Assembly (NCBI GenBank): GCA_039934415.1
Contig: JBDTME010000002.1
Location: 92,746-156,745 of the forward strand
Direction: 5' to 3'
Length of the DNA stretch: 64,000 nucleotides
Source of the DNA: Patescibacteria group bacterium
Lineage (GTDB): Bacteria; Patescibacteriota; Microgenomatia; UBA1400; PJMF01
In this document: positions 7,832 through 11,602 of the stretch, piece by piece
Layout of the letters: each line of letters begins with the position of its first letter
How positions within the stretch are numbered: position 1 is the first letter of the stretch
Notes under the pieces: generated by a model
Seen by the model: the letters and a program-made list of their open reading frames with translations, nothing else
Databases searched by the model: none
What the model was told of the DNA's origin: nothing
Position numbers and translations under genes: made by a program

Positions 7832-7957
7832 AAACTCCCTTAGAAGTGTGTATTATAGCAAACAAATCACCCCTTTACTTCTCGCCTATCTCAACAGTAT
7901 ACACAAAAAAGGAGAGTCTCACTGAGACTCTCCTTTCACATTTTCAAAATATCAAGC

Positions 7958-8797
7958 TCATTTGGCTAACTTTTCATCAATCTTTGCCTTGAATGCTGCG
8001 ATTGGTTGAGCACCGACCAAAGGATCTTTTTCGACGAAAAAGGTTGGAGTACCACCTGCACCAACTTTGTTTCCAAGTGCGGAATCATTATCGGTAGCTG
8101 TTTTGTACTTTCCTTCTTTGACACAAGCAACTGCTTTGTCTCCATTGAGTCCACCAGCATTGGCTAACTCAGAATACTTCTTGTACAAATCTTCACCAGT
8201 GAGTGAAACCCACATGGCTTGGTTAGTGAAGAGTTGATCGTGCATCTGTAATCCCTTGCCCTGTTCGACAGCACAACGAACGAGTTGAGCTGAAGAATTG
8301 GAGTTCGGGTGAAATGGTAACGGTTGATCCTTCAAGATAATCTTCATTTTGCCAGTTTTAACATAATCCTCAATCAATTGTTTTTGAGTTTGAGTGTAGA
8401 ACTGTTCACAAAATGGACACTGATAATCGGTGAACTCAACCATAGTAACTTTGGCGTTTTTATCACCAATCACGAAAACTGGTTCTTTTTGAATTTCTTT
8501 CCAATCAGCGTCAGAAAGTGGTTGAGCTGCAGCTGGCGCAGCTGCTGGTGCCTGAGCTGCTGGTTGATTTCCAAGACCACCTCCCGCTTTCAGTGTTTGA
8601 TTCTCTTTCCATAAAGATCCAAACACAAAGCCAAAGATGAACAATCCACTACCAACGACTAATAAAAGAAAATTATTATTTACGAATTGCAACATCGAAG
8701 AGAGAGAGTATGAATTCTGACTCATTGATGTCATTACTGCTTTTTGCTTTGGTTCAACTTGAACGCTTGCTTTTTTTGTCGGCATGGGACTCCTCAA
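7958..8797 (-). CDS. DsbA-family thiol:disulfide oxidoreductase, membrane-anchored
   Basis: Thioredoxin-fold active site FTDYQCPFCEQF. An N-terminal TM anchor and an Ala/Pro-rich linker precede it. Confidence 0.75.
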   Translation of the reverse strand: MRSPMPTKKASVQVEPKQKAVMTSMSQNSYSLSSMLQFVNNNFLLLVVGSGLFIFGFVFGSLWKENQTLKAGGGLGNQPAAQAPAAAPAAAQPLSDADWKEIQKEPVFVIGDKNAKVTMVEFTDYQCPFCEQFYTQTQKQLIEDYVKTGKMKIILKDQPLPFHPNSNSSAQLVRCAVEQGKGLQMHDQLFTNQAMWVSLTGEDLYKKYSELANAGGLNGDKAVACVKEGKYKTATDNDSALGNKVGAGGTPTFFVEKDPLVGAQPIAAFKAKIDEKLAK

Positions 8798-8921: not shown

Positions 8922-9926
8922 CTATCGTTGCTCTAACCATCGTTCTGCATCGATTGCGGCTTGGCAACCTTGTGCAGACGCAGTAATCGCTTGCTTATAG
9001 CGTACATCTACAACATCACCTGCAGCAAAAACTCCAGTGACTGAAGTCATAGTTGGAAACTGAATGATTCCCTCATTGAGGGCAGCTTGCGCTAACTCAA
9101 TTCCTTTTTGAGTTAAACTCGTTCTGGTTACAATGTATCCATGATCATCCAGTTCGACATGATTCTGTAAAAATTCTGTCGTTGGTCGATGACCAATTGC
9201 TAAAAACACACCATCTGTTTCAATCATTTTTTCCTGACCATTTTCACTCACTTTTAGACTCGTTACCGCTGGGTCACCGAGTACTTCTTGAGGAATTGTG
9301 TTCCACATCACTTTTACTTTGGGATTATTTAACACACGATCTTGCATGATTTTACTCGCTTTAAATGAATCGCGACGATGAATCACGGTCACAGAACTCG
9401 CAAACTTGGTCAATGCTAGAGTATCCTCCATTGCACTATCACCACCACCAATCACGACAGTTTTTTTATCTTTAAAAAAAGCTGCATCACAAACCGCACA
9501 AGTAGATACGCCACGACCAATCAATCGTTGTTCACCTGGAATTCCCAACATAATCGAATCTGCACCTGTCGCCAAAATAATGCTTTTGGCTTGGTACTCA
9601 ACCTCACCATCTTTTGTTTTGACAAACACCTTCTTGATAACAGGATCTGAAAAATCTACTCGCTGTACATTACGATACTCGACCGTTGCACCAAAGCGCT
9701 CTGCTTGTTTGCGCATCTCGTCCATTAACAGTGGACCATCGATTCCTTTTTCATTTCCAGGCCAGTTCTCAATCACAGTCGTCAGCATTAGTTGACCACC
9801 AGCTTTTTCCCCAGCCAAAATCAACGGCTTCAAGCTCGCGCGGGCCGCATAAATTCCTGCCGTGTACCCGGAAGGACCGGAACCGACGATGATCAGATCG
9901 TGAATAGAAGTGTTATCCATATTCAA
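8922..9926 (-). CDS. trxB: thioredoxin-disulfide reductase
   Basis: FAD motif IIVGSGPSGYTAG, redox-active CAVCD and the NADPH site VIGGGDSAMEDT. Confidence 0.9.
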   Translation of the reverse strand: MNMDNTSIHDLIIVGSGPSGYTAGIYAARASLKPLILAGEKAGGQLMLTTVIENWPGNEKGIDGPLLMDEMRKQAERFGATVEYRNVQRVDFSDPVIKKVFVKTKDGEVEYQAKSIILATGADSIMLGIPGEQRLIGRGVSTCAVCDAAFFKDKKTVVIGGGDSAMEDTLALTKFASSVTVIHRRDSFKASKIMQDRVLNNPKVKVMWNTIPQEVLGDPAVTSLKVSENGQEKMIETDGVFLAIGHRPTTEFLQNHVELDDHGYIVTRTSLTQKGIELAQAALNEGIIQFPTMTSVTGVFAAGDVVDVRYKQAITASAQGCQAAIDAERWLEQR

Positions 9927-9971: not shown

Positions 9972-10307
9972 TTACTTCGCCTGTTCAATCATCTTCTCAT
10001 ATCCTGCTCGTCCAGAAAAGCCAACTTGGCGATCAACTTCTTCTCCACCTTTGAACATGATCACCGTTGGGATGCTCATGACACCAAATTGTTTTGGAGT
10101 ATTCTGATTCTCATCAACGTTCATTTTCACAATGATGACATCTTTTTCAGACTCACTCATTTCATCTAAGATAGGCGCTGCTAATTTGCATGGACCGCAC
10201 CAGTCAGCAAAGAAATCGACCATGACTGGCTTATCAGACTTCAAAACCATTGCGTCAAACTGATCATCGGTAATGTGCGCTGCACCAGTGTGTTGTGTAT
10301 CTGCCAT
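9972..10307 (-). CDS. trxA: thioredoxin
   Basis: The WCGPCK active site in a 111-aa protein. Confidence 0.9.
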   Translation of the reverse strand: MADTQHTGAAHITDDQFDAMVLKSDKPVMVDFFADWCGPCKLAAPILDEMSESEKDVIIVKMNVDENQNTPKQFGVMSIPTVIMFKGGEEVDRQVGFSGRAGYEKMIEQAK

Positions 10308-10330: not shown

Positions 10331-10567
10331 TTAATATTTAAATACTTCTGCTAAGACTGCATCCAAATCCTCGATCCGTCTCTCTTTCGAACATTTAAGC
10401 GCTTCTGTGGTCAAAACTGATCTGGCCACAGACGTTAATGAGTTTCGAGCCGCAATAATTTGGCGAACTATCTCGACACATTCTCGCTGCGACTCATACA
10501 TCTCATAAATGCCATTCACTTGACCGGCAATGCGCTTGAGCTGGGAAAGAGTTTGATCAGATGACAT
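10331..10567 (-). CDS. CsoR/RcnR-family (DUF156) transcriptional repressor, two-Cys variant lacking the metal-ligand His (CstR-like)
   Basis: A 78-aa all-helical protein with the family-typical length and pattern. Cys30 and Cys59 sit at the family ligand positions, but the position four residues before the second Cys is Glu, not His. It is the first gene of the trx gene string. Confidence 0.55.
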   Translation of the reverse strand: MSSDQTLSQLKRIAGQVNGIYEMYESQRECVEIVRQIIAARNSLTSVARSVLTTEALKCSKERRIEDLDAVLAEVFKY

Positions 10568-10576
10568 CCTTTATTT

Positions 10577-10593
10577 ATACCCCCCGGGGGTAT
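10577..10593. promoter_or_regulatory. perfect palindrome ATACCCCCCGGGGGTAT, candidate CsoR-family operator
   Basis: It lies 10 nt upstream of the repressor start codon. CsoR/RcnR operators are G/C tracts flanked by AT-rich inverted repeats. Confidence 0.6.
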
Positions 10594-10630
10594 GAGAGTC
10601 AATGGGTGAAATGCTGACTATAGATTTGCC

Positions 10631-10930
10631 CTACTTCTCCACTACTTTGGCTGCAAACAAGGTATCACCACTAAATTGTCCAGTTATACTGACTTGTTTG
10701 TTCGCGTAAGGAGTTAAATCAATTTTATAACTGTCGAGTTCGGTCTGCTTACCTGTGGAATCAACTAACGAAAATGTGTCACCGGATTGAACGACTTTAC
10801 CACTCAGCGTGGAGTCTCCTTCTCTGGCAGTAGGATTGGCTTGAATAGTATCTGCGTTGGACTTTACTGTTGGTTGGGATTGGCAACCAGCTAATAAAAG
10901 TAGACTGGACAATAGAATAAGATATTTCAT
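10631..10930 (-). CDS. hypothetical lipoprotein
   Basis: Signal peptide with a lipobox LLAGC. 99 aa. Confidence 0.4.
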   Translation of the reverse strand: MKYLILLSSLLLLAGCQSQPTVKSNADTIQANPTAREGDSTLSGKVVQSGDTFSLVDSTGKQTELDSYKIDLTPYANKQVSITGQFSGDTLFAAKVVEK

Positions 10931-11032: not shown

Positions 11033-11602
11033 ATGAAGATAAAAGCATCACTGCTGTCGTTGACGCTGGCAGGCACATTCATTTTGAGTGCCACTCCAGT
11101 ATTTGCCGAAGAGAGTAATACTTTGTTTCTGAGACGCGAAGACAACATGGAGGCTCGTGTCACCAAGCAGGAAGAACGAATTGAAACAATGAAAGCCAAG
11201 GTGACAGAACGGGCTGGTGAACGACAAGAACGCCGTACCGATATGGCTCAGAAACATGCCGGAAATTTAGAGACTCGTTTTAACGAAATGTATAAACGGC
11301 TCAGTACTTTGGCGAGTAAGATTCAAACTCGCATCAATGCTGTCAAAGCTGAAGGAAAAGACACCGCTGCTGCTCAAACCAAGTTAGACGCCGCTAAAGC
11401 ATCACTGGAATCAGCGAAAAGTTTGGGGCAAGAAGCCATCACCGCTTTCAAAGGTATTGATCCAGCTAAATATGATGAGCAACGATCAAAAGCATTGGCA
11501 GCTAAAGATAAAGCAGAACAAGCCAGAAAAGCATTTATGACTGCTCTACAAGATATGAAAGATGCAGTTGCCGCTCTCAAAGCATTGCGACCAACAGAAT
11601 AA
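11033..11602 (+). CDS. hypothetical secreted coiled-coil protein
   Basis: A signal peptide followed by a long alpha-helical KAEK-rich region. The upstream RBS is GGAGG. Confidence 0.4.
   Translation: MKIKASLLSLTLAGTFILSATPVFAEESNTLFLRREDNMEARVTKQEERIETMKAKVTERAGERQERRTDMAQKHAGNLETRFNEMYKRLSTLASKIQTRINAVKAEGKDTAAAQTKLDAAKASLESAKSLGQEAITAFKGIDPAKYDEQRSKALAAKDKAEQARKAFMTALQDMKDAVAALKALRPTE

Follow-up and report, generated by a model that had tools for sequence, protein, structure and literature searches.

In a 64,000-nucleotide stretch of the genome of a Patescibacteria group bacterium (assembly GCA_039934415.1, contig JBDTME010000002.1, positions 92,746 to 156,745; hereafter the window), a 78-amino-acid (aa) protein of the CsoR/RcnR family is encoded at the head of a string of genes for thioredoxin (trxA), thioredoxin reductase (trxB) and a DsbA-like oxidoreductase, all running in the same direction on the minus strand. 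On the basis of sequence and comparative genomics, from which the whole of this analysis is built, we consider it reasonably probable that this protein is a repressor that acts through a dithiol switch and controls its own gene together with the rest of the regulator-trxA-trxB(-dsbA-like) operon. The evidence that carries this reading lies in the residues found at the sensor positions of the family, in a linkage to thiol-redox genes that is strictly kept among relatives, and in a palindrome that overlaps the promoter ahead of the regulator. The regulator and its promoter elements are:

10567..10331, minus strand: gene of the putative CsoR/RcnR-family repressor, 78 aa, with x-C30-E55-C59 at the W-X-Y-Z positions of the family (from PF02583, alignments to PDB structures and an AlphaFold2 (AF2) model)
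10602..10597, minus strand: predicted -35 hexamer, TTGACT (from the sequence, with TTGAC(A/T) equally far from the palindrome in relatives)
10577..10593, no strand: predicted operator palindrome of 17 bp, ATACCCCC-N-GGGGGTAT, that is ATACCCCCCGGGGGTAT (unique in the window and kept in relatives)
10579..10574, minus strand: predicted -10 hexamer, TATAAA, 17 nt after the -35 (from the sequence, with TATA(A/T)(A/T) kept in relatives)

The regulator matches PF02583 (Trns_repr_metal; CsoR/RcnR, DUF156) with 60.7 bits against a cut-off of 22.8 (E=1.8e-16), which bears out a first-pass annotation, made from the DNA letters, that had described a 78-aa CsoR-family protein with Cys30 and Cys59 and had left its strand unstated. 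Its AF2 model (predicted local distance difference test, pLDDT, 89.2) has the three helices of the family (residues 3-25, 30-61 and 65-75), and in this monomer position X stands at the start of helix 2 and positions Y and Z at its end. When the model was compared with the PDB by Foldseek, the best 19 matches were all CsoR-family proteins (CsoR, CstR, InrS or FrmR), and profile matches in the PDB to CsoR, CstR and InrS reached 1e-13 to 1e-12. HMMER alignments, made both with the single sequence and with the family profile, run ungapped through helix 2 and place C30 on C36 of the Mycobacterium tuberculosis CsoR (MtCsoR; position X), C59 on its C65 (position Z), and E55 on its H61 (position Y), the last being also the place of the N55 'wedge' in the CstR of Streptococcus pneumoniae (7MQ1). 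Glu55 likewise occupies position Y against 2HH7 and 4M1P, and the x-C-H-C first shell of the copper sensors is not formed; the earlier claim that Glu takes the place of the His ligand therefore holds up against solved structures. R57 and Q81, which are needed for DNA binding by the CsoR of Streptomyces lividans, correspond to R12 and Q36 of the regulator (an offset of 45), of which Q36 is invariant across all family alignments and R12 is invariant in one of them (A3) and at least 90% conserved in another (A2).

Against the NCBIfam equivalog models the regulator scores 38.9 for RicR (cut-off 175), 29.7 for RcnR (cut-off 138) and 25.3 for FrmR (cut-off 133). The H-C-H-H and H-C-H-C motifs of RcnR and InrS are absent, since there is no N-terminal His and position Y is Glu, and no W-position His or N-terminal ligand was seen in the family alignments; the marks of FrmR are missing as well, the window protein beginning with MSSDQ, Pro2 not being conserved, and no frmA lying nearby. 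The family profile scores 53.9 bits against the Cu-CsoR of Geobacillus, 51.4 against the CstR of S. pneumoniae, 50.5 against MtCsoR and 50.3 against InrS, and these nearly equal values place the regulator on a separate branch and not among the close relatives of CstR. No paralogue of the regulator, of TrxA or of TrxB was found within the 64-kb window.

To follow the linkage of the regulator to its neighbours, we compared 48 related loci from genome and metagenome contigs, with regulators 45-91% identical. A first homologue search had given 13 close relatives and genome contigs alone gave 2 loci, the breadth of the set coming from a metagenome scan and profile searches; the family profile picks up 1039 clusters formed at 90% identity (E<=0.001), with source names that include Patescibacteria, Woesebacteria and Pacebacteria. 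A protein identical to the regulator is annotated in a Patescibacteria metagenome-assembled genome. The genes for the regulator, trxA and trxB are adjacent and co-directional in all 48 loci where the contig reaches far enough. The flanks differ among loci (CTP-transferase/lipoprotein, DnaG, Trp-repressor, ApbE, MiaB-like, TsaD/E): the clade of the window has the CTP-transferase and lipoprotein genes upstream and DsbA, DUF5654 and UppS downstream, and many other loci have DnaG upstream and glutamate dehydrogenase (Gdh), malic enzyme, DsbA or RpoD downstream. Since the flanks vary while regulator-trxA-trxB stays constant, the module has been kept through several rearrangements. Judged by gene order, the core module is regulator-trxA-trxB, and the DsbA-like gene, which follows trxB in some relatives only, is a frequent but variable addition; of the circuit first proposed for the whole trxA-trxB-dsbA-like string, the link of the regulator to trxA and trxB is thus strongly conserved and the inclusion of the DsbA-like gene is not. 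Beside the regulator we found no copper, nickel or sulfide-detoxification genes in any of about 57 loci; neither copA/copZ (also absent from the neighbourhood in the window) nor rhodanese, CoA-persulfide reductase, SQR, PDO or TauE adjoin it there. The genes downstream of the regulator in the window, whose family matches and motifs agree with the thioredoxin, thioredoxin reductase and DsbA-like protein named before, and the terminator that closes the string, are:

10307..9972, minus strand: trxA, thioredoxin with WCGPC (PF00085, 9.2e-28; TIGR01068, 121.8 against a cut-off of 96.8)
9926..8922, minus strand: trxB, low-molecular-mass NADPH thioredoxin reductase with CAVC and HRRD (PF07992; TIGR01292, 365 against 343 bits)
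8797..7958, minus strand: DsbA-like thiol:disulfide oxidoreductase with CPFC, predicted to be membrane-anchored and extracytoplasmic (PF13462, PF01323)
7937..7907, minus strand: predicted strong intrinsic terminator, with a 14-bp stem and a T-run, closing the gene string

Read on the minus strand, the DNA upstream of the regulator runs TTGACT-ctc-ATACCCCCGGGGGGTAT-AAA-taaagg-ATG. The palindrome ATACCCCCCGGGGGTAT has a single central base between arms of 8 nt, and 9 nt separate it from the ATG; it fills the 17-nt spacer of the promoter, its final 3 nt being the first 3 nt of the -10 element. Its presence just upstream of the regulator had been noticed in the first-pass annotation, and we found a site of this type, in an unchanged place within the promoter, in each related locus whose upstream DNA was available. 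With up to 3 mismatches permitted it is the single match in 64 kb (0.01 expected), and it is also the sole ATAC-N9-GTAT site in the window (0.35 expected), with no second copy there. The palindrome belongs to the TAC-X9-GTA class and has the architecture of the S. lividans CsoR and Streptococcus mitis CstR operators, and this inverted repeat, together with the putative DNA-contact Arg (RLXR) and Gln of the protein, is what is expected of operator recognition in the superfamily. In the relatives of the 48-locus set with upstream sequence the site is a 17-bp ATAC-N9-GTAT with a G/C-rich centre that follows TTGAC(A/T) directly and leads into TATA(A/T)(A/T). A suggestive trend connects the type of half-site (ATACC/GGTAT or ATACT/AGTAT) with the protein subclade, with mixed sites in L008, L009, L014 and L034 (loci of the set are numbered with L). 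The promoter itself was read by eye and checked against relatives, the automated scan, which accepts only T as the last base of the -10 hexamer, having passed over TATAAA.

Other origins of the palindrome were ruled out. The expectation of 0.01 and the position kept across loci exclude a chance palindrome, and a terminator of the upstream lipoprotein gene is excluded because a central spacer of 1 nt allows no loop; the terminator is further contradicted by the lack of a U-tract, by an upstream gene that varies by locus and by the invariable placement of the site between -35 and -10.

The ATG of the regulator lies 6 nt after the -10 element in the window (10565-10579, minus strand), and the regulator mRNA is therefore probably leaderless. 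The same 6-nt spacing was seen in L003, L006, L011-L013, L015-L017, L019, L020, L027-L029, L032 and L040, and a spacing of 9-10 nt in L002, L004, L009, L014 and L046. In contrast to the regulator, trxA has a normal Shine-Dalgarno sequence, AAGGAG, located in the 23-nt gap between the two genes.

The signature of the sensor site extends well beyond the close relatives of the window protein. A search of 1.84 billion representatives (50% identity) gave, among the best 150 matches, 49 proteins with C-E-C and 49 with C-H-C at positions X, Y and Z. Eight distant C-E-C relatives were sampled, and in all eight, with flanks that are all different, the regulator directly precedes thiol-disulfide genes, namely trxA-trxB in five, trx alone in one, and a CcdA-like DsbD_TM gene in two, in one case with glutaredoxin. 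All operators of L049-L055 keep the 17-bp frame, as ATACT-(G-rich 7)-AGTAT or as a different form of ATAC-N9-GTAT, and in most of these loci the operator overlaps a -10-like element. Within the CcdA-like subgroup, L054 (3501-5068) adds glutaredoxin and L055 (3501-4471) adds DUF3179; both have VIT1 at 1-3 kb upstream, and L055 has an encapsulated-ferritin gene there as well.

Several patterns indicate what has been selected at this site. Tyr at the position before X (Tyr35 in MtCsoR), a second-shell residue reported as required for copper allostery, is present in 44 of 45 C-H-C proteins of the same search, which served as an internal control, and in none of 55 loci of the regulator family nor in any C-E-C protein. 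In unfiltered family alignments, which reach regulators of 45% identity, every sequence has C59, and the conservation of C30 and of E55 is 90% or more. From the family we preselected the 276 unique sequences that carry E55 together with C59, and C30 is kept in 96% of them (265/276); four of the 11 sequences that have lost it have gained Cys64 (C59-x4-C64) and one more has a CxxC at 56/59, compared with a single sequence with any Cys at positions 60-70 among the 265 that retain C30. These gains appear to fit a need for a pair of cysteines better than a fixed metal-binding geometry, a suggestive point and not a statistical one, since the four Cys64 variants are probably one evolutionary event. 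The variants with what looks like a relocated partner cysteine (Cys64 or the CxxC at 56/59) are L046 (97-327), P0151, P0155, P0156 and P0210. A further subgroup of the CsoR family has C-D-C, with Asp at Y and a one-residue deletion before the Cys at Z (P0351, P0352, P0354, P0363 and P0372).

We propose that the reduced regulator would bind the ATAC-N9-GTAT palindrome, presumably as a tetramer by analogy with other CsoR-family proteins. There is only one promoter, and the palindrome takes up its spacer and reaches into its -10 element; a bound repressor would therefore block RNA polymerase and repress the regulator, trxA and trxB together. The sensing site would be the Cys30/Cys59' pair, at the positions where, across a subunit interface, CsoR holds its copper ligands and CstR its reactive dithiol, with the conserved Glu55 standing in for the His ligand or the Asn wedge. 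Oxidation of this pair, through peroxide or disulfide stress or by reactive sulfur species (RSS), would produce a disulfide or a sulfur-bridged cross-link and release the repressor, so that thioredoxin and thioredoxin reductase are induced; with NADPH these would then re-reduce the repressor and complete a homeostatic loop like that of RexT and TrxA2 in Nostoc. We argue from the regulated genes, trxA and trxB, that the physiological signal is thiol oxidation, and the same genes together with the RexT-TrxA2 precedent suggest that thioredoxin and its reductase reduce the sensor again, the repressor thus probably being reset by thioredoxin itself.

RexT, an ArsR-SmtB protein of Nostoc sp. PCC 7120, represses trxA2 until oxidation by H2O2 releases it, and TrxA2 then returns it to the reduced form. 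It is a functional analogue, in that a 'metal-sensor' fold has been re-used as a thiol switch over a thioredoxin gene, but it differs from the window protein in its unrelated winged helix, in a vicinal Cys40-Cys41 disulfide formed inside one subunit, and in its gene arrangement. Spx in Firmicutes, SigR-RsrA in Actinobacteria and OxyR in Proteobacteria also induce the thioredoxin system when thiols are oxidised, and in two cases, RsrA and OxyR, the induced thiol reductants reset the controller. These are activators or a sigma/anti-sigma pair, belong to unrelated families and govern large regulons, whereas the putative controller in the window is a small CsoR-type repressor whose own gene opens the trx operon.

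The best surviving alternative is an orthodox analogue of CstR, specific for persulfides and other RSS, in which sulfane sulfur would connect Cys30 and Cys59' by di-, tri- or tetrasulfide bridges, and in which thioredoxin and thioredoxin reductase would remove sulfane sulfur and reduce persulfides in mostly anaerobic hosts that often live with sulfide. CstR (from Staphylococcus aureus, Enterococcus faecalis and S. pneumoniae/S. mitis; PDB 7MQ1-3) has the same three-helix PF02583 fold and an x-C-x-C pattern without the His ligand, and its operator has the same architecture (ATATACCCTTATGGGGTATAT in S. mitis, ATACCCCCNGGGGGTAT in the window). It forms inter-subunit Cys-Cys cross-links with persulfides, H2O2 or tetrathionate and then leaves the DNA, and by analogy a cross-link across the dimer interface with release of DNA is the likely mechanism of the window protein as well. 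The motif and the operator thus agree with CstR, and the top single-sequence match of the regulator in the PDB is the CstR of S. pneumoniae; the abstracts of two papers (PMC6196236, PMC6831875) report that thioredoxin-family proteins reduce persulfides and remove sulfane sulfur, and according to a review of CsoR proteins other sulfur donors may serve those x-C-x-C members in which the Asn wedge is missing. Set against this, the structurally defined CstRs of Firmicutes carry an Asn wedge at Y (x-C-N-C), and the invariant Cys of CstR cluster 10 is the N-terminal one, whereas the family of the window has a conserved Glu at Y and an invariant C-terminal Cys (C59); it adjoins trxA-trxB (or ccdA/grx) and, across the roughly 57 loci, never rhodanese, CoA-persulfide reductase (CoAPR), SQR, PDO or TauE; its hosts are Patescibacteria; and its profile scores bring it no nearer to CstR than to Cu-CsoR. 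The 'CstR-type' label given in the first-pass annotation therefore stands at the level of x-C-x-C and fails on the wedge, on the choice of invariant cysteine and on the absence of cst-type genes. We regard a persulfide-specific sensor as rather unlikely, and we favour a general thiol-oxidation signal (disulfide or peroxide stress) as about twice as likely, because no sulfide-detoxification gene is present and Glu replaces the Asn wedge.

A metal sensor with an unusual Cys-Glu-Cys site (for Zn, Cd, Fe or another thiophilic metal), for which induction of the thiol system would be the answer to a loss of thiols under metal stress, seems to us improbable. The superfamily consists mostly of metal sensors, a carboxylate with two thiolates could in principle hold a divalent metal, and VIT1 or encapsulated-ferritin genes occur 1-3 kb upstream in two distant loci. 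The Cu(I) sensors CsoR (M. tuberculosis 2HH7, S. lividans 4ADZ and Geobacillus 4M1P) share with the window protein the fold, a TAC-X9-GTA type-2 operator, the conserved DNA-contact Arg and Gln and an autoregulation that is predicted here, and the sites in L003 and L012 differ little from the copZA1 operator of S. lividans (GTACCCCCTAGGGGTATAC). In the window family, however, His61 is replaced by Glu, Tyr35 is missing and no copA/copZ neighbour is found; it has neither the W-position His nor an N-terminal ligand, it scores far under the RicR, RcnR and FrmR equivalog cut-offs, and in no locus does it have a gene for an efflux pump, a chaperone or uptake as its neighbour. The shift of geometry from Cys30 to Cys64 or CxxC would also be better tolerated by a disulfide switch than by a metal site.

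A shade less credible than the metal sensor is an autoregulator blind to any signal that buffers expression of the trx operon and whose cysteines are structural or vestigial. Negative autoregulation alone would account for an operator on the regulator's own promoter, and some members have a single Cys, but the invariance of C59, the conservation of C30 and E55, the retention of C30 in the preselected set and the compensating cysteines point to selection on the site. Least probable of all is a sensor of electrophiles or aldehydes that induces thioredoxin on FrmR-like or quinone-type alkylation of cysteine, for although FrmR has the same fold and uses Cys35, and some relatives begin with Met-Pro (L009, L011, L015), Pro2 is not conserved (MSSDQ in the window), the N-terminal arm is shorter than that of FrmR, the neighbours include no frmA-type dehydrogenase, and of all matches, in structure as in sequence, that to FrmR is the weakest.

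Returning to the thiol-oxidation repressor, a number of points weigh against it. DNA binding, repression, induction by thiol oxidation and reduction by thioredoxin are steps that we infer. The predicted operator cannot be told by its sequence from Cu-CsoR operators, and it is therefore uninformative on the signal. Seven of the 276 sequences have a single Cys and L030 has Lys at position Y, so that the dithiol/Glu site is not absolutely required. The evidence from synteny is largely drawn from one phylum, and because about half of the loci have dnaG upstream they are not fully independent. A gap of about 125-135 nt precedes the DsbA-like gene, which makes its co-transcription uncertain, and the gene could have its own promoter. 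The regulon may also have further members outside the 64-kb window.

More broadly, we suggest tentatively that the CsoR superfamily may have, in the C-E-C clade, its missing sensor branch for general oxidant and disulfide stress, and that this clade may also be the principal, perhaps the only, thiol-redox regulator of the Patescibacteria (candidate phyla radiation, CPR). If this is true, sensor, thioredoxin and thioredoxin reductase would constitute a minimal, self-contained homeostat, in many cases joined by a dehydrogenase that makes NAD(P)H (Gdh or malic enzyme) and by DsbA or CcdA as an extracytoplasmic component. The fold and the operator type are already known, and the dithiol chemistry probably is; the C-E-C signature of the sensor site, the predicted thioredoxin-system regulon and the host lineage are new. 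In the literature searched we found no description of a CsoR-family protein linked to trxA/trxB or occurring in Patescibacteria, with the proviso that the supplement of Fakhoury et al. 2021 may hold prior notice; matches to 'DUF156' in papers on Leptospira were rejected, being in fact DUF1566. That survey of the superfamily leaves clusters 6-9 uncharacterised and nowhere in its main text names thioredoxin, and according to a 2024 review no H2O2-specific sensor of the CsoR family has been characterised. The analysis therefore offers a concrete and testable function for a large uncharacterised branch of the superfamily, and a natural comparator for how a dithiol scaffold is tuned to Cu(I), persulfide or general oxidants, with the change at Y among His, Asn and Glu as a handle. 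Regulation is almost unknown in the small-genome and mostly uncultured CPR/Patescibacteria, for which a conserved set of operator, promoter and regulator is a rare entry point; it also supplies a promoter consensus that can be put to use (TTGACA-17-TATAAT) and speaks for leaderless translation in these bacteria. The three-gene cassette is small enough for complete testing in vitro or in E. coli.

Further observations concern the genes around the module. The likely start of trxB is the ATG at 9920, which leaves a gap of 45 nt after trxA; the DsbA-like protein has an N-terminal transmembrane helix, with its likely start at the ATG at 8785. Directly upstream of the regulator in the window lies a gene for a 99-aa lipoprotein with weak similarity to DUF5818/DUF7537 (10631-10930, minus strand), followed by a divergent gene for a 189-aa secreted coiled-coil protein, DUF6987 (11033-11602, plus strand); both are kept in the closest relatives only.

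The module stands directly after dnaG in L008, L009, L011, L014, L018, L021 and L022, and also in L024-L034, L037-L040, L052 and L053. The rpoD gene is downstream of the module in L009, L018, L025 and L030, right after trxB in L009 only, with a Gdh or DsbA gene between trxB and rpoD in the other three. With dnaG before it and rpoD after it, the cassette is thus inserted into the classical dnaG-rpoD (macromolecular synthesis) neighbourhood. Gdh follows trxB in L006, L012, L013, L018-L020, L030, L031, L036, L045, L049 and L050, and malic enzyme does so in L008, L011, L027-L029, L032, L039 and L040; as both enzymes yield NAD(P)H, they may furnish reducing power for TrxB from within the same operon.

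Finally, the regulator family is carried by four records of metagenome-assembled genomes (MAGs), L001 (CAZOWX010000002.1), L002 (CAYOQI010000006.1), P0014 and P0123, which bear the labels 'uncultured Pseudomonadales bacterium', 'Vitreimonas sp.' and 'Pseudomonadales bacterium'. Given the presence of the family, and a synteny in L001 and L002 of the Patescibacteria type seen in the window, the taxonomic labels of these MAGs look wrong.

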